Shown one piece after another: positions 5,804-64,000 of a stretch of DNA of 64,000 nt; within the stretch, counting starts at the first letter, position 1, and each line of letters opens with the position of its first letter. A program made the position numbers and the translations under genes. This stretch comes from a phage: the sequence record OZ335960.1. One strand, written 5' to 3'. Under the pieces are notes generated by a model. That model worked only from the letters and a program-made list of their open reading frames with translations, made no database searches and was not told the DNA's origin.

Positions 5804-6065
5804 TTAGACTTTCCTTTTTACCGCTGAGATAAGCGTTATATACTTTAAGAGTGCCGTAATAAATTCGGTCATTTTCGTCTAAAGACTCACGGTCAAGTTC
5901 ATCGAGTTCCTTTTTATCCATGACTATAATATCATTGCAGTAAAGAAACCCAAGTTTTTCGTGACCAAACTCAAATTTATTGCAGTACACAATATTAGCA
6001 TGATGATTTCCGTGCAGTTTAATCTCTTTTATGTCGGAATCACCGATATTCATACAATAAATCAT
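5736..6065 (-). CDS. hypothetical protein, 109 aa
   Basis: Six-frame ORF overlapping denB start; acidic. Confidence 0.45.
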   Translation of the reverse strand: MIYCMNIGDSDIKEIKLHGNHHANIVYCNKFEFGHEKLGFLYCNDIIVMDKKELDELDRESLDENDRIYYGTLKVYNAYLSGKKESLNAENESGFTETISDSDIYPIEQ

Positions 6066-6077
6066 AATTTTTCCTTA

Positions 6078-6098
6078 AAACAAAAGGGCCGAAGCCCC
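6078..6098 (-). terminator. UUCG-loop hairpin terminator
   Basis: minus strand GGGGCUUCGGCCC followed by U-run. Confidence 0.5.
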
Positions 6099-6103
6099 TT
6101 ATT

Positions 6104-6298
6104 TTATTTGAATTGTGCAATTCTTTTTTCTAAACAATCTGCGTAAGATTTCATTGAGATGAACTGTGAAAGCAGTAATTCTTGCTCAACTTCATTAATC
6201 GTTAGAAACTTTGTGCTTTCTAAAAATTTGCTCAGTGCATTAATTTTGAGCATTAATTGATCGTATTCTTCTTTTACTCGTGCTTGATAACCTAACAT
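6104..6298 (-). CDS. hypothetical protein, 64 aa
   Basis: Six-frame ORF bracketed by two UUCG hairpins. Confidence 0.5.
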   Translation of the reverse strand: MLGYQARVKEEYDQLMLKINALSKFLESTKFLTINEVEQELLLSQFISMKSYADCLEKRIAQFK

Positions 6299-57380: not shown

Positions 57381-58361
57381 TTATTTCAGAAGAGTAACCT
57401 CAGCGATTTCTTCCCAACCGTTTTTGTCGGTCATAATAAAGTCAGCAAGATAAAGAGCAGTACGCAGTGAAACATTGCGTAAACGATTAACATTAACTTT
57501 CATCCATGATAATGCTTTATAAGTTTCTTCATCAGAAAGACCGCGCTTTTGCATCATGTCAGTTGAAAGAATAACATCTTCAACCCTGACCATAATTTCT
57601 TCATTAGTGTGAACACCCAAATCCAAATAAACCGAGCGGGACACTAATGCTTGTAAATGTGGAGCAAGTTTAGTACCACGGTCTAATTCGCGGTCAATGT
57701 CAACGTTTGTGATAAAAACAATCGTTCCTTTAAATTCAAACTCACGCTCAATGCCTTTTTCTTCTAAGTAAGAAGATGCAGTGCTCCAGCAGACTTTACG
57801 GGTCTCTCCGGTGTCCAGAGCGGCTTTTAGAAGATTAAGAATGTCCATATCAGAGAAAACATCCACATCATCAATCAAAAGGACAGAATTCTCTTCACGA
57901 TTATTCCAAAGCTGCTCATAAAGACCAATACCAGAGATTTTACCATTAATGCTTTTATATTCAATGTATCCAATATCATTTGCTTTATTCAAAGCTTTAT
58001 CTAAAGAATACGTTTTACCAATACCTGCTGCGCCAGAGATAATCAATGAACGAATATTTCCATTAATAATACCATTCGTCATCATTCCCATAACATTAAA
58101 TCTTTTATTAATGCGGGTTTTCATATCTTCATACGATTCTTTAACTTCTTCAACTTTTACACCATCATATGAAATATCTGATTTGTAAACCCAAACACCG
58201 CGACGTTTACCGTCAATTTCAACAAAAACTTTACCATCTCCTTGTGCATCTACCGGAGCATTATCTGGGAACCATTCGCCTAAGAGCTCAAAAGTTCCAG
58301 AGATTTCTTTGCCGAAGTAGATACCCTTATTGATAGTTACAGTTTTCATTTTATTCTCCAA
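57381..58361 (-). CDS. AAA+/P-loop ATPase with N-terminal ~90-aa extra domain, 326 aa
   Basis: Walker A GAAGIGKT, Walker B VLLIDDVD, sensor-1-like FITN; own early promoter and SD. Confidence 0.65.
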   Translation of the reverse strand: MENKMKTVTINKGIYFGKEISGTFELLGEWFPDNAPVDAQGDGKVFVEIDGKRRGVWVYKSDISYDGVKVEEVKESYEDMKTRINKRFNVMGMMTNGIINGNIRSLIISGAAGIGKTYSLDKALNKANDIGYIEYKSINGKISGIGLYEQLWNNREENSVLLIDDVDVFSDMDILNLLKAALDTGETRKVCWSTASSYLEEKGIEREFEFKGTIVFITNVDIDRELDRGTKLAPHLQALVSRSVYLDLGVHTNEEIMVRVEDVILSTDMMQKRGLSDEETYKALSWMKVNVNRLRNVSLRTALYLADFIMTDKNGWEEIAEVTLLK

Positions 58362-58463: not shown

Positions 58464-59477
58464 TCATTTATAATAACTTCGGTGGTTTTCAAGATAAACC
58501 CTCTCAAGGAAGTCATCCCAGAAACCCATGTCTACTTTTTGCTGCATACCGTTCTTAGAAGCTTCAATGGATGCTGCTTCTACCTGATCGACCACATCTT
58601 CCAAAAACTCTTGAACAGTTTTAAATGGATGTTTACCCAACTTCACGTCGAGAATAAATGGAGCGTCTTGAAGTGGATAAACTAAGTCACCTGTTTTGTA
58701 AATTTCCAATAGTTGGAGTCCACCACGACAAGCATGACTTAGAGCTTTCCAATCAATGCCCTCATTCGCTTCAGCCTTACGAGCGCGTTCGCCGTATTCA
58801 GCATCAAGTTTATTCAAAGATTGCTTAAGCTCGATAAGAGAAAGCGTTGTTTGATATTTACGACCCAACACAGTGTAGAACGTTTGTGGGCCTGTTTTCT
58901 CATGATTATGGAATACCCATTCACAGAATTCGTTCTCTGGAAGACGATGCTTAATATCTTCAACTTTAGTGCGACGCTGCTTAATGGAACCGTCTTCTTG
59001 ATAATCAACCCATTGCTCAGGGATTTGATTAACTACTTTCAATACATCACGTAATGCGGCCAAACGAGAACCCTTGACGCCGTATTTAGAAGCTTGCTTG
59101 CGAACATATCCTAAATAGGATTTCATGTTAGTCGTATAAAAACGAGAACGATTGTCTTGAATAAATTTCCATACATCAGGCAAATCAGATTTAACCACTA
59201 ACTCAGGTGGAGTGTGGAGCATATCCAATGCTACAGTTTCACCATCTGCTGCTAATTTAAAGAAATACTTAAGACTGTATAGTTCATGGTCAATATCATC
59301 TTTAGTGTTTTTAGATGATGTGTTGTTAGTGTTTTTACTCATATGCTCTTTAACATTTCCGATAAGAATGTCGCGAGCAGGAGGAACAAAGATTTCTTTA
59401 AAATCTACATCAGATTCTGGAGTAGAAGTTCCATAAAGATGACTACCAAAATAGCTTTTCATTACTGTTTTCATCAT
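58464..59477 (-). CDS. Pol-beta-superfamily nucleotidyltransferase-like protein, 337 aa
   Basis: N-terminus YFGSHLYGTSTPESDVDF fits GS-x-G-x-SDxD NTase signature; helical C-terminal region. Confidence 0.6.
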   Translation of the reverse strand: MMKTVMKSYFGSHLYGTSTPESDVDFKEIFVPPARDILIGNVKEHMSKNTNNTSSKNTKDDIDHELYSLKYFFKLAADGETVALDMLHTPPELVVKSDLPDVWKFIQDNRSRFYTTNMKSYLGYVRKQASKYGVKGSRLAALRDVLKVVNQIPEQWVDYQEDGSIKQRRTKVEDIKHRLPENEFCEWVFHNHEKTGPQTFYTVLGRKYQTTLSLIELKQSLNKLDAEYGERARKAEANEGIDWKALSHACRGGLQLLEIYKTGDLVYPLQDAPFILDVKLGKHPFKTVQEFLEDVVDQVEAASIEASKNGMQQKVDMGFWDDFLERVYLENHRSYYK

Positions 59478-59935
59478 TCAGCCTTATATTCAATAACAGG
59501 ACATACTTTAGCTTTACGCGCTTTTAAAAATTCGACGATAATAGATTTCTTAGGTTGAATAGGAGGTAAACCTTTATACGCCCTATCAATATTTTCTACA
59601 TGTAAAGCATAATCCTTTTTCCATTTATAATCTTTATATTTTTCATGCAGTTGTGCAGGAATAACAAATGAACCAATAATAAGTAAAACAAGCAAAATGG
59701 CAAGTATAAATGCTGATGGAATAAGAGTCCATAGACTGCTAAAAATAATCCAACGCTGTAAACTTTCTGCGCAGATAATAGTTAGACCTGCGAGTATAGT
59801 ACATCCGAAAAAAGAAACGAAAAATGTAGGGATAACAATAGACCAAAAGTATGCACATAATGTCTTAGGTCGTTTCCATTCGTCGTTAAACATTTTGAAT
59901 AATTTATAATGCCAAGAGTTTTCATTAATAATCAT
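59474..59935 (-). CDS. multi-pass membrane protein, 153 aa
   Basis: Two long hydrophobic blocks; stop overlaps NTase ATG (ATGA). Confidence 0.5.
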   Translation of the reverse strand: MIINENSWHYKLFKMFNDEWKRPKTLCAYFWSIVIPTFFVSFFGCTILAGLTIICAESLQRWIIFSSLWTLIPSAFILAILLVLLIIGSFVIPAQLHEKYKDYKWKKDYALHVENIDRAYKGLPPIQPKKSIIVEFLKARKAKVCPVIEYKAE

Positions 59936-59937
59936 AA

Positions 59938-60459
59938 TTATCCTTTCATTGAAGGTGTAACAGTTGTTAAATACTTAATCATAGCTTCAGCTTCTGATTT
60001 TGATAATGAAATTTCTCCATTGTTTTGACGAATAGAAATAAAATCCGGATGACGGTCACCACCAGCTTTTAAAATACACATATAAGTATCAGTTTCATCT
60101 TCAATATCTGAAATGATTGAAGCAGTTCCGCATGAATGCGGTTTTTGATAAATCAATGCAGCTTTTCTTCCGCCGTTTGACTGTTCATAAACTTTTAACA
60201 CATCAAACAAATCGCTTCTTTTATCAATAGCTAAGATGTTGTTTTCATCTTCAATGTTAAATCCTTCGGATACTTCATAAAGTGTCACCCATAAATCGCC
60301 AATATCAATGACAGCATTCACCTTTCCATGATTTTCAAGAGCATTACAAATTTTCTTAATTTCATCATAACTCATTTTAATAATATCATCTCCTTGAATA
60401 AAGAAGATGTCATTTTTAAATTCAACGCGAATTAAACCACTTCCACTTGAAATAAACAT
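59938..60459 (-). CDS. hypothetical protein, 173 aa (paralog A)
   Basis: C-terminal SKSEAEAMIKYLTTVTPSM shared with next ORF. Confidence 0.5.
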   Translation of the reverse strand: MFISSGSGLIRVEFKNDIFFIQGDDIIKMSYDEIKKICNALENHGKVNAVIDIGDLWVTLYEVSEGFNIEDENNILAIDKRSDLFDVLKVYEQSNGGRKAALIYQKPHSCGTASIISDIEDETDTYMCILKAGGDRHPDFISIRQNNGEISLSKSEAEAMIKYLTTVTPSMKG

Positions 60460-60465
60460 ATTTCC

Positions 60466-60957
60466 TCACTTTGAAATCATAGTTGGAATGACAGAATCAA
60501 GATAAGTCTTTAGCGCAATAGCTTCGTCTTTTGTAAATGTGACAATATGCGATCGAAAATCATCAATTTGACGAATAGTTAAGACGTCTCCATCTTCATA
60601 ACATTTTGATACGTTTAAAACAGTTTCATCATTCTGATTGCAAGCGTTAGTAATAATAGCATTGCAATTTTTAAACCATTTTAAACTATGTTTTCTTTCA
60701 TTAGAATAATAAAAATATTTAATCTTATCTATAAAACTGTCCCAATGGATAACTGATAAACACATTGACTCACTTTTAATATTAAATCCTGGGCATGAAG
60801 AATAAAAATGAATTTTGTGCTCATCATTGATGCTTACTATTTTATCAGTATAAGGATATTCAATTTGGGTTAAATGAATGATTTCACTAGGCGTAAAATA
60901 CAGCATATCGTCTTCTTGCGTCAAACGATACATGTTATTTACTTTTTCTATAGCCAA
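60466..60957 (-). CDS. hypothetical protein, 163 aa (paralog B)
   Basis: C-terminal TKDEAIALKTYLDSVIPTM. Confidence 0.5.
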   Translation of the reverse strand: MAIEKVNNMYRLTQEDDMLYFTPSEIIHLTQIEYPYTDKIVSINDEHKIHFYSSCPGFNIKSESMCLSVIHWDSFIDKIKYFYYSNERKHSLKWFKNCNAIITNACNQNDETVLNVSKCYEDGDVLTIRQIDDFRSHIVTFTKDEAIALKTYLDSVIPTMISK

Positions 60958-60999
60958 TTCACCAAAAAGGGACTAACTTCTAATACTAATCGTTTCATA

Positions 61000-61278
61000 T
61001 TAATCCTTTTTACTAACATGAATTTGTTCTAAAATTTTAGAGTATTCCTTTGTATCAGATTTACGCACAATCGATACGCTATAAGGCATACTATCAGTGT
61101 CTTTTATAAAGCGTTCCAAATGACACTCTAACAAAATTTCTGGATTATAAATCGTGTACATCAAATTACCTGTTGCTCCACGATATTGGCAGATTTCTAC
61201 TGATTGAGCATCATTCCACAATTTTGTTAAGACTAAATCACCTACTTCTAATTTCGGAAAGCTCACATTATTCACCAA
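61000..61278 (-). CDS. hypothetical protein, 92 aa
   Basis: Six-frame ORF. Confidence 0.45.
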   Translation of the reverse strand: MVNNVSFPKLEVGDLVLTKLWNDAQSVEICQYRGATGNLMYTIYNPEILLECHLERFIKDTDSMPYSVSIVRKSDTKEYSKILEQIHVSKKD

Positions 61279-61453
61279 TTAAAGTTTCAATATAAGAATC
61301 AAGATTTACTTTAGCTTCTTCCATAAGAGTTTTGTATTTAATCTTGTTAGCATATCCAGAGAAAGCTGATTCATCAATAACTGTTGATGTATGAACAGCT
61401 TTACTATACATCTCAATTAATTCTCTTAATTTAAAAGCCTGCTCACTTGTCAT
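61268..61453 (-). CDS. small helical protein, 61 aa (small paralog family member)
   Basis: MTSEQAFKLRELIEMYSKAV... Confidence 0.45.
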   Translation of the reverse strand: MTSEQAFKLRELIEMYSKAVHTSTVIDESAFSGYANKIKYKTLMEEAKVNLDSYIETLIGE

Positions 61454-61583
61454 TACATACTCCTTTGAATAATATCAATAATGTTGTTCACCAAATTATA
61501 CGTAAACATTGGGTAATTATATTGAATCATCACATACACAACAAACAAAACTTTCATTCTCTTCTCCTTGGCAGTTGACAAGA

Positions 61584-61617
61584 TTACTATACCATAACCT
61601 TGCCAACTTGTAAACCA
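61584..61617 (-). promoter_or_regulatory. early promoter
   Basis: Minus strand GTTTACAagttggcaaggttatggTATAGT. Confidence 0.45.
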
Positions 61618-61791
61618 TTAAATGACGTTTTCAATAAAATTCTGAAGCTTTGTGTGAGCATCAACCATGATTTTCATTTCTTCCTTTGCGAAAGCTGTAC
61701 CTCTTTCACGAGAAGAATACTCATAGTCAGAAACTGCATTAGCATATTCTTCAATTAGCTTCATTAAAAACATCTGCTTTTCAGTTTTCAT
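61618..61791 (-). CDS. small helical protein, 57 aa (small paralog family member)
   Basis: Hand translation MKTEKQMFLMKLIEEYANAV...; below track cutoff. Confidence 0.4.
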   Translation of the reverse strand: MKTEKQMFLMKLIEEYANAVSDYEYSSRERGTAFAKEEMKIMVDAHTKLQNFIENVI

Positions 61792-61975
61792 TATTCCACC
61801 TAATCATTTCAAGATATTGAACTAACTTAGCTTTAGATTTATCCAAATCTTTTTTAGCTGCTGCTATACCTTCGTATGAATATCCTTCACAATGCTCAAC
61901 TGCCAATTGGTATGAATCTGTTTCAACATCACGTGCTAATTTAATGATTTTTTCAAACTGTTCACGTGTTAGCAT
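61781..61975 (-). CDS. small helical protein, 64 aa (small paralog family member)
   Basis: MLTREQFEKIIKLARDV... Confidence 0.45.
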   Translation of the reverse strand: MLTREQFEKIIKLARDVETDSYQLAVEHCEGYSYEGIAAAKKDLDKSKAKLVQYLEMIRWNNEN

Positions 61976-61977
61976 AC

Positions 61978-62181
61978 TTAAACTCTCGTATTATGATCAA
62001 TAATTTCATCAAGAAACATATCTAAAGCTTCTACAGCATTATCAACTTTAGCTTCAAGTTCTTCAGCACCTTTATTTGCAATGCCTGACGAAAACCAAGC
62101 AAAGTCACTAAGTTCCTCATCTGCTTTGCGAATTAAAGCTACCAATTCTTTAATTTTATCTGCTTGTTCAATGCTAATCAT
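61978..62181 (-). CDS. small helical protein, 67 aa (small paralog family member; start could be 62217)
   Basis: [20 protein letters not shown]...; ATG overlaps upstream stop. Confidence 0.45.
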   Translation of the reverse strand: MISIEQADKIKELVALIRKADEELSDFAWFSSGIANKGAEELEAKVDNAVEALDMFLDEIIDHNTRV

Positions 62182-62369
62182 TATTCCACCACATATGAAA
62201 GAGAGAATATTGCACACGCCATATGAGTTGCAGCTTCATCACACATATTATAACGTTTCTTAAGAAGTTCTACAAGTTCTTCACTAGTAACTTCATCCAT
62301 GTTGACGAAAAAATCACCATTAATGATGACGTAGATATTTCCTTCTTGATTAAGTGCTTCAATTTTCAT
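62181..62369 (-). CDS. hypothetical protein, 62 aa
   Basis: ATG at 62369 with SD GAGGAG; downstream of early promoter. Confidence 0.45.
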
Positions 62370-62395
62370 GATGTTCTCCTCTTTATCCGATGGTT

Positions 62396-62431
62396 GTATA
62401 GTATCACAGCTCAAATGGAAAGTAAACCGGT
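62396..62431 (-). promoter_or_regulatory. early promoter (-35 GTTTAC, -10 TACTAT)
   Basis: Minus strand GTTTACtttccatttgagctgtgaTACTAT. Confidence 0.5.
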
Positions 62432-62435
62432 AAAA

Positions 62436-62460
62436 TGAAAAAAGTCTCCCGAAGGAGACT
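62436..62460 (-). terminator. UUCG-loop terminator
   Basis: GUCUCCUUCGGGAGAC plus U-run. Confidence 0.6.
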
Positions 62461-62464
62461 AATG

Positions 62465-62851
62465 TTATTCGAGGGAAAGAAGATATTTGCTCTGGTAAAA
62501 CATCCCAGTAATATCATCTATCGTGCTTTGAATGGCCGGAGGCATTTCTTTATAAATGCTGTTAGATTGGTCTAGTATGCGATCAATCATTTTAATTGTG
62601 TCGGTAGGAAGTTTACTGGCATCTGGAATAGAAGGCGTGTATTTTCTACCAGAATACCCCAAATATTGCTCACCAAATTTATCAATCAAATCTGGCAACT
62701 CAGAGAAAATAAAATCGTATGCTTTGTGTCTAGCATAACTTTTAGTTTCAAAATGTGCAGAATGAAAATAAGCTTGTGCAGCCATTAATAAACCTAAGTA
62801 TTCATCTGCCTTTGAAGGTTTTCCACTTTGTGAAAAGTCGCTGAATTTCAT
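62465..62851 (-). CDS. hypothetical protein, 128 aa
   Basis: Six-frame ORF. Confidence 0.5.
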
Positions 62852-63141
62852 TCAGTCTCCAATTTAATGTTCATAATTCTAGCGTATGATTGTGCCATCT
62901 CCGCGCCTCGCTCTATACATTCGAAATCGGAAGAGCACGGGTCATTTTTATAGGTCGTTCGCATAAAACTATAGAACTGTTCAGATGATTCTACGCTTTT
63001 ATTTTCAAAAAGCATATAAACGTGTCTAATACCAGATTCCATAAATTTATCAAAATGAGGATCGACATTCGCTTCAATCGGTGGAGATAAAGCAAATGCT
63101 AATCCTAGCATGGCAAATAGTGCCGTTGCTTTTAAGGCCAT
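62848..63141 (-). CDS. secreted/periplasmic protein, 97 aa
   Basis: N-terminal signal peptide MALKATALFAMLGLAFALSPP; cysteine pair CSSDFEC. Confidence 0.5.
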   Translation of the reverse strand: MALKATALFAMLGLAFALSPPIEANVDPHFDKFMESGIRHVYMLFENKSVESSEQFYSFMRTTYKNDPCSSDFECIERGAEMAQSYARIMNIKLETE

Positions 63142-63153
63142 AAAGGCCTCCTA

Positions 63154-63366
63154 TCATTTTTGTCCTGTATTTACTTTATGCCGATGCACGGCCTTAACTT
63201 TATCAAGGTATTTTTCAAAATTTCGCAATCTAGTATAGTCTGCCGGAGATTGGTTGAGTGATACTTCTCGACGCAAAGCTGAAATGATATTTCCAACTTC
63301 CCTACGAATTTCATCTAATTGAAGAACAGTAAGATTGCGAAGTTGCTTTTCAGTTAATTGTAGCAT
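63154..63366 (-). CDS. hypothetical protein, 70 aa
   Basis: Six-frame ORF; TATAAATA late-promoter-like motif 26 nt upstream. Confidence 0.5.
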
Positions 63367-63408: not shown

Positions 63409-63990
63409 CTAACCGAGCTTTTTAGTTAATTCATTCCAGTGTTTTCTACACAAAGAAACATAAATTTCATCACCAATACAGATTTGATTACCTTCTTTAA
63501 CTGGTGTTCCATCTTCCATTAATCGAGCTGTCATAATCGCTTTTTTACCACAATGACAAACTGCTTTTAGTTCAATAAGTTTATCTGCAATCGCCAAAAG
63601 TTCTTTAGAACCTTCAAATAATTTTCCAGCGAAATCAGTCCTTAGACCATAAGCCATAACAGGAACATTATATGTATCAACAATTCGGCTTAATTGATGC
63701 ACCTGTTCAGTTTTTAAAAACTGGGCTTCATCTACAAATACACAATGAATATCTTTTTGTGCTTCTGCCCATTTATAGAACTCAAAAATATCCATATCAT
63801 CCGTAATAATATTCGCTTCCTGTTTAATTCCAATGCGAGAAACGACTTCACAGACAGAATCGCGAGTATCAATAGCAGGCTTAAGAACTAATACGCCCAT
63901 TCCGCGTTCTTTATAATTATGCGCAGCAGTCAAAAGAGAAGCAGATTTTCCAGCATTCATTGCTGCATAAGTAAAAATTAAACTCGCCAT
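63409..63990 (-). CDS. tk: thymidine kinase
   Basis: 193 aa as T4 Tk; P-loop MNAGKS; C-terminal zinc cysteines. Confidence 0.9.
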   Translation of the reverse strand: MASLIFTYAAMNAGKSASLLTAAHNYKERGMGVLVLKPAIDTRDSVCEVVSRIGIKQEANIITDDMDIFEFYKWAEAQKDIHCVFVDEAQFLKTEQVHQLSRIVDTYNVPVMAYGLRTDFAGKLFEGSKELLAIADKLIELKAVCHCGKKAIMTARLMEDGTPVKEGNQICIGDEIYVSLCRKHWNELTKKLG

Positions 63991-64000
63991 CTTAGTCCTT

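Follow-up and report, generated by a model that had tools for sequence, protein, structure and literature searches.

Bacteriophage T4, the reference lytic phage, carries five genes of the family DUF7438 (Pfam PF24219) without an assigned function, four of which are made as proteins in infection. This T4 set consists of MobD.4 (UniProt P39237), MobD.3 (P39238), a frameshifted MobD.2a, Tk.1 (P13306) and Tk.2 (P13307). Time-resolved omics data of T4 put MobD.3 and MobD.4 in the class 'early RNA, early protein' and list the two Tk proteins as 'early RNA, middle protein'; for mobD.2, mobD.2a and mobD.5 the RNA was early and the protein undetected (PMC9697503 supplement). T4 mutants that lack the stretch from nrdC.11 to mobD.3 are able to grow (PMC9825161). 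Here we analyse the corresponding array in a stretch of phage DNA of 64,000 nucleotides (sequence record OZ335960.1; hereafter the window), in which four small open reading frames (ORFs), termed A to D, are located on the minus strand. We identify them as four genuine, early-transcribed DUF7438 paralogues whose likeliest role would be to bind other proteins, as small dimers, during host takeover or counter-defence, a combined reading to which we assign a probability of roughly 0.55. The identity, homology and expression of the four genes, taken by themselves, are close to certain. Listed along transcription, they are:

61978-62181, minus strand: D, homologue of T4 mobD.4, DUF7438, 67 aa, net charge -9
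61781-61975, minus strand: C, homologue of T4 mobD.3, DUF7438, 64 aa
61618-61791, minus strand: B, full-length form of T4 mobD.2a, DUF7438, 57 aa, annotated mobD.2a in T6
61268-61453, minus strand: A, homologue of RB14ncORF103c (RB14 ORF103c), DUF7438, 61 aa, no T4 counterpart

The coordinates given in a preliminary description of this DNA were confirmed for all four ORFs, as was its remark that B falls under the cutoff of the ORF track, which is 60 aa. Its account of the four as adjacent holds for D, C and B, which are contiguous, but not for A and B, which lie 164 nt apart with an early promoter and the gene mobD.2 in between. In length, genomic position and early expression class, the four ORFs resemble the DUF7438 genes of T4. 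They differ in that B is intact here and frameshifted in T4, that A is present here and missing in T4, and that the loop of D is 7 residues longer than that of T4 MobD.4.

With respect to structure, the nearest named analogue is Rop of ColE1, a hairpin dimer of 63 aa. Like the modelled DUF7438 proteins, Rop/Rom and other homodimeric alpha-hairpin four-helix bundles have some 60 residues in a pair of long antiparallel helices with a short connecting loop and a heptad-like hydrophobic pattern. The best structural matches include Rop variants and designed hairpin oligomers, but they are generic (E about 0.3-0.8). Membership by sequence fails: there is no detectable sequence relationship, none of the four ORFs has a Pfam match to Rop, and Rop was not returned from a profile search of the PDB at E<=10. 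The likeness of DUF7438 to Rop rests on monomer models. With respect to function, the T4 early ORFans 55.2 (a topoisomerase I inhibitor, PMC4396842) and MotB (PMC6070864) are small, dispensable, early and fitness-improving, and 55.2 hits a host protein. They represent the functional class that the preliminary description had proposed when it named the four as candidate inhibitors of host factors, a reasonable guess, but they have no sequence or fold relationship to DUF7438.

Family membership, distribution and copy number

All four ORFs match PF24219 above its gathering score of 25 bits (A 54.5 bits, E 1.5e-14; B 60.3 bits, E 2.4e-16; C 60.1 bits, E 2.7e-16; D 58.5 bits, E 8.8e-16), each spanning profile positions 1-56/57 of 57. 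The seed of this family probably already includes orthologues of each copy, which makes the match partly circular, and independent tests of homology were therefore run. Such circularity speaks for the view that these short helical ORFs look alike by chance or through their composition and that the four are not true paralogues, and so do the pairs A-C and B-C, which reached no significance in Smith-Waterman alignments against 1000 shuffles. The same alignments, however, gave z scores of 6.8 for A-D, 5.4 for A-B, 3.0 for B-D and 2.0 for C-D; most pairs with the neighbouring small ORFs (mobD.5, rI.1, tudor) remained below z 1.5, the highest value being that of D-tudor (z 2.7), above C-D.

Profiles that were each made from orthologues of a single paralogue and compared by hhalign joined all four copies, either directly (A-D 94%, C-D 69%, A-B 40% with E 3e-4 over 50 columns) or via the Tk proteins (C-Tk.1 83%, C-Tk.2 79%, D-Tk.1 92%), whereas the negative controls, profiles of helical neighbours of equal size including mobD.5, all remained at or below 1.4%. 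Among the PHROGs, C and D both match phrog_653 at 1e-22 to 1e-24, and A, B and D cross-match each other's families. A hidden Markov model (HMM) built from 20 diverse members returned exactly A, B, C and D (E 1e-19 to 1e-25) and no other from all six-frame ORFs of the 64-kb window. Since the shuffle, subfamily-profile, PHROG and HMM tests concur, the paralogy of A, B, C and D can be regarded as established at the level of sequence, as the preliminary description had supposed, and an artefact is hardly credible. The N-terminal pattern on which that description relied is exact in D, shifted by one residue in A, contains two mismatches in C and fits B loosely. B is the most weakly linked copy (A-B E 3e-4, z 5.4), and C joins the family mainly via D, Tk.1 and Tk.2. 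When positions 60900-62600 were scanned against Rfam and for DNA repeats, nothing meaningful was found, so that no nucleotide-level similarity is seen among the paralogues.

Several labels attached to orthologues of these genes should not be propagated. A matches phrog_4859 (E 6e-37), which carries the label 'helicase loader' found in many GenBank records, yet Pfam and NCBIfam together give only DUF7438, the NCBIfam scan of the four having found nothing. The label 'kilA' on the A orthologue of T6 (RefSeq) has no support in the family scans. No family corresponding to 'molybdopterin-guanine dinucleotide biosynthesis protein MobD', the label on C and D orthologues, was found in Pfam or NCBIfam scans; the label probably goes back to the mobD.x gene names of T4, in which mobD stands for 'mobile endonuclease D'.

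An HMM search of 1.84 billion representative proteins retrieved only 25 clusters at 50% identity, nearly all of about 60 aa. One protein of 3120 aa, matched over 27 residues, is probably coiled-coil noise. Those members for which a source phage was identified all come from Straboviridae (T4-type phages), mostly Tevenvirinae (Tequatrovirus, Gaprivervirus, Moonvirus and others), across whose genera the family is kept at 20-45% identity; the most distant members come from metagenomes only, and for one of them (P0103) tblastn found no match in sequenced phages. Close orthologues of A (>=80% identity) occur in 192 phage records, compared with 558 records that match the array region, and one more was found at 46%. 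A-type sequences at about 46% identity exist in divergent phages and metagenomes, and a distant relative (P0094) was grouped with A by eye in the alignment.

The number of mobD-side copies varies: this phage and Lv5cm have four, T4 has two intact ones and a broken one, VR7 has two, and UPEC01 and PTE-Eco05 have one each. Further members are tk.1 and tk.2, which in T4 lie upstream of tk, beyond position 64000 of the window. These tk-side genes or their orthologues were located at positions 647-1017 of locus L018, 5602-5793 of locus L002 and 6008-6190 of locus L003. In the tk-side sequence examined, T4 and three of four Tequatrovirus relatives from IMG/VR have two such copies, and Lv5cm and one relative a single match. 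Because tk.1 and tk.2 add to the four mobD-side copies, a phage of this kind may carry up to six DUF7438 genes in total.

Individual copies are decaying in particular lineages, as two frameshifts indicate. T4 mobD.2a (38 aa) is a frameshifted B whose two halves match the HMM in different frames (locus L001 5997-6178; T4 58049-58165 region), and mobD.3, the counterpart of C, is frameshifted in Yersinia phage PYPS2T (locus L013 914-1108). A forms, together with the tudor gene that follows it, an indel cassette of about 445 bp (window 60997-61441), which is present here, in T6, in Lv5cm and in others and missing from T4 and several IMG/VR relatives. The gene called mobD.2 in T4 is the 34-aa gene in the gap between B and A, and not A. 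Both ends of the cassette fall at gene junctions, so placed that a stop and a start overlap as TAATG with or without it.

Transcription, translation signals and selection

Positions 60900-62600 are 96-98% identical to many T4-type phages of Escherichia, Shigella and Salmonella, and the window is a segment of a Tequatrovirus (T4-like) genome that maps onto the mobD-rI region of T4. Read against the annotations of T4, T6 and Lv5cm, with all genes on the minus strand and listed along transcription, the features around A to D are as follows:

63409-63990, minus strand: tk
63154-63366, minus strand: rI.1
62848-63141, minus strand: rI
62465-62851, minus strand: rI.-1
62398-62460, minus strand: intrinsic terminator, then mobD.5 early promoter
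62181-62369, minus strand: mobD.5, 62 aa, unrelated to DUF7438 and used as no-similarity control; opens the unit mobD.5-D-C-B
61586-61615, minus strand: T4-type early promoter in the B-A gap
61453-61557, minus strand: mobD.2, 34 aa, hydrophobic, not DUF7438, annotated MobD.2 in T6
about 61000-61266 (ORF as listed 61000-61278), minus strand: Phage_tudor (PF24144) gene
60466-60957 and 59938-60459, minus strand: two mobD.1-type genes

Two early promoters drive two translationally coupled units, one consisting of mobD.5, D, C and B, and the other of mobD.2 and A, followed by the tudor-domain gene. Upstream of mobD.5, an intrinsic terminator after rI.-1 (stem-loop 62460-62443 plus a T run), annotated at the same site in phage G28, is followed by an early promoter with GTTTAC at 62427-62422 and TGaTACTAT ending at 62398. 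The transcript from the T4 mobD.5 promoter was shown by primer extension and is insensitive to RegB (PMC1702504). In the B-A gap, GTTTACA and TGgTATAGT are separated by 17 nt (61615-61586), with a predicted start at about 61579. By coordinate transfer from T4, this promoter is the counterpart of Pe57954/Pe57.9, a named T4 early promoter that has been seen experimentally (PMC6024815). The suggestion that the four are early genes is borne out by these two promoters and by the early class of T4 MobD.3 and MobD.4.

The translation signals are those of tightly coupled genes, and all four ORFs have a Shine-Dalgarno sequence. The ATG of D at 62181 overlaps the mobD.5 stop by a single base (TAATG) and is preceded by the Shine-Dalgarno sequence GGTGGA (62185-62190). 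An alternative GTG start at 62217 (79 aa) was rejected, as it overlaps mobD.5 and is not followed by the family N-terminus. C starts 2 nt past the stop of D, and the last 11 nt of C are shared with the start of B. The initiation contexts of B and D are identical (GGTGGAATAATG; 61789-61803 and 62179-62192, minus strand), despite no nucleotide similarity of the coding sequences. In the second unit, the mobD.2 stop and the start codon of A again have one base in common (TAATG), and both genes have the Shine-Dalgarno sequence AAGGAG, that of A being 6 nt upstream of the start. This hexamer includes the GGAG core recognised by the T4 endoribonuclease RegB.

The ratio of nonsynonymous to synonymous polymorphism (pN/pS), computed across 9-14 related loci, was lowest in B (0.07), followed by C (0.12) and D (0.24), which points to purifying selection on all three genes, strong in the case of B. 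For C and D, both formal similarity and, through the detected proteins of their T4 orthologues, translation were found. The small gene mobD.2 was conserved in all 14 loci compared, with a pN/pS of 0.23, and is kept in the divergent phage PTE-Eco05; its product may be a small membrane peptide.

Predicted fold and proposed role

The predicted fold rests on AlphaFold2 monomer models of two copies. D was modelled with moderate confidence as an antiparallel two-helix hairpin (helices 4-30 and 37-66, pLDDT 78.5), and C likewise (helices 4-16/19-28 and 34-63, pLDDT 75.7). Helix-turn-helix in the DNA-binding sense, as the wording of the preliminary description could be taken, does not apply: no family of this type passes the Pfam threshold, the modelled helices of the hairpin comprise 25-30 residues, and all four proteins, of about 7 kDa, are acidic. 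Given net charges of -9 for D, -3 for A and -2 for B and C, binding to DNA is unlikely. Hydrophobic a/d/e stripes run along both helices. Residues conserved throughout the family are the N-terminal T/S-x-E-Q...K-I-x-x-L and the C-terminal L-x-x-[FY]-[LI]-[ED], and the models suggest that these two conserved segments meet where the hairpin is open. The loops are rich in aromatic residues and glycine and distinct per subfamily. Among 37 orthologues of D, residues 1-22 and 51-67 are almost invariant and residues 23-50 vary by substitutions and in-frame indels of 3-10 residues, with a pN/pS of 0.07 for the base and 0.47 for the tip; the closed, aromatic-rich tip of D evolves fastest.

What Foldseek matched were either uncharacterised proteins of T4-like phages or generic hairpins, such as designed oligomers, Rop variants and fragments of channels and SNAREs. 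Searching all PDB sequences with a profile gave only a repeat-driven match to designed armadillo repeats (E 1e-4) and a marginal one to UPF0122; we judged both spurious.

A hairpin of about 60 residues with a/d/e stripes on both helices is unlikely to be stable alone, and would most likely form a four-helix bundle, as a homodimer or together with a paralogue, or dock onto a partner helix. Such pairs would act stoichiometrically by binding other proteins in the first minutes of infection, and would be neither enzymes nor DNA binders. The stoichiometric protein binder is the most economical model because no catalytic motif was found and the net charge is negative. Given the variable copy number, the pseudogenes among the copies and the viability of T4 without part of the region, the role would be accessory and probably dependent on the host strain, in takeover or counter-defence; the loss and gain of single copies, the dispensability in the laboratory and the faster tip all fit such a role. 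This mechanism of a binder or inhibitor with an accessory, host-dependent role is tentative, and we would give it somewhat less than an even chance when taken alone. More speculative, and in our view rather doubtful, is the extension that DUF7438 proteins are multi-copy stoichiometric inhibitors, in which the open end would mediate homo- or heterodimerisation and the fast aromatic tip would give each paralogue its own host target. Such targets could be variants of an anti-phage defence or a takeover target, and the variation of the target by the tip would explain why Tequatrovirus keeps up to six copies that are gained and lost singly. If this were true, the best-studied phage would have, in DUF7438, a family for counter-defence or takeover that had so far gone unrecognised.

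A literature search found no functional study of DUF7438/PF24219, mobD.x, Y05F-I or tk.1-3. Peptide strings of the family were not found in the supplements of two T-even accessory-gene screens, and the supplement of the CRISPRi-ART screen of T4 has no per-gene entry.

Several observations weigh against the reading of the four genes as dimerising binders of host proteins. The tip of D, at a pN/pS of 0.47, is still below 1, which may reflect relaxed constraint instead of diversifying selection. Foldseek gave no match at E<=1e-3 against PDB and BFVD. No fused domain was found among the 25 clusters from 1.84 billion representative proteins, and no neighbouring gene is informative about a binding partner. 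The protein evidence from T4 covers neither A nor B, direct evidence for B being absent because the T4 copy is frameshifted, and pN/pS was uninformative for A (pS 0.018), whose orthologues are too similar. An early-protein screen in a related Mosigvirus found growth inhibition for only 6 of 45 proteins, which may or may not have included DUF7438 members.

Instead of acting on the host, the hairpins might serve the phage itself, regulating its proteins or binding them as adaptors or chaperone-like partners; the y05I-like MobD.1 putative transcription factors would be one example of such phage proteins. The stable synteny of the array with mobD.1, DUF7189 and TraR-like genes across genera would agree with such a role, and helical hairpins are common adaptor modules; copy number, however, changes independently of the neighbours (four here, two intact in T4, one in UPEC01 and one in PTE-Eco05), and the tk-side copies lie in another neighbourhood. 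We consider a phage-internal role unlikely. Very unlikely, in our view, are acidic nucleic-acid mimics with an anti-restriction function or Rop-like binders of structured RNA that form a four-helix bundle. This idea draws on the net charge of -9 to -10 of D, Tk.1 and Tk.2, on the equality of size and architecture with Rop, and on the Rop variant 7kae_B among the fold matches (target-normalised TM 0.80). The charge of A, B and C is, however, only -2 to -3, the Foldseek E value of 0.81 is no better than those of designed hairpins, and the profile and Pfam searches mentioned above did not recover Rop.

The four could also be evolutionary debris, small ORFs of a hyperplastic region that are carried along by recombination cassettes and translated at noise level without a selected function. 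The frequent loss or frameshifting of copies, their occurrence within indel cassettes and the deletable part of the region in T4 would be expected of debris. However, the pN/pS values of 0.07-0.24 for B, C and D, the persistence of the family across Tevenvirinae genera at its low identity and the detection of four T4 members (MobD.3, MobD.4, Tk.1, Tk.2) as proteins argue for a selected function and make this explanation highly improbable.

Gene movement and neighbourhood

The DUF7438 genes occupy the early tk/rI/mobD region in T4, T6, Lv5cm, VR7, UPEC01 and Merlin alike. Small genes in the hyperplastic regions of T4-type phages are reportedly shuffled by promoter-early/stem-loop (PeSL) cassettes, a model said to go back to Arbiol et al. 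in 2010. The present locus resembles this model in its layout, with a terminator stem-loop followed by an early promoter upstream of mobD.5 and with small genes that come and go at exact gene junctions, as in the case of A and the tudor gene. The comparison is one of layout and not of sequence homology, and the model accounts for the movement of the genes, not for their function.

The array is ordinary in kind for the hyperplastic early region of a T4-type phage, the family is already catalogued as DUF7438, and the four genes are near-identical to hundreds of deposited phage genes. The discovery is therefore modest. The window does provide the complete mobD-side set of four intact copies, two of which T4 has lost or broken. 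Because this set is complete, the present phage, T6 or RB14 are better suited than T4 for knock-outs and interaction screens.

Some features of the neighbouring genes were noted in addition. In Gaprivervirus and Moonvirus, a gene of the DksA/TraR zinc-finger type and a DUF7189 gene belong to the same small-gene cluster (VR7 locus L003 3225-3482; L005 3225-3482; Merlin L017 7760-8017), and in VR7 and UPEC01 they lie directly downstream of mobD.3. Weak reciprocal Pfam matches between DUF7189 and the C-terminal domain of MobD.1 hint at a distant relationship. The Phage_tudor gene usually starts with an ATG 1 base past the stop of A, which is a GTG here (61266-61264), and the ORF list consequently gives an upstream TTG start. 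The mobD.1 gene, single in T4, is present here as a tandem duplicate (59938-60459 and 60466-60957; Pfam T4_y05I_N and T4_y05I_C, 'putative transcription factor'), and the HNH homing endonuclease gene mobD of T4 is missing. Between the mobD.1 pair and nrdC.11 (58464-59477, RlaP nucleotidyltransferase) lies an ORF of 153 aa without a Pfam match (59474-59935).

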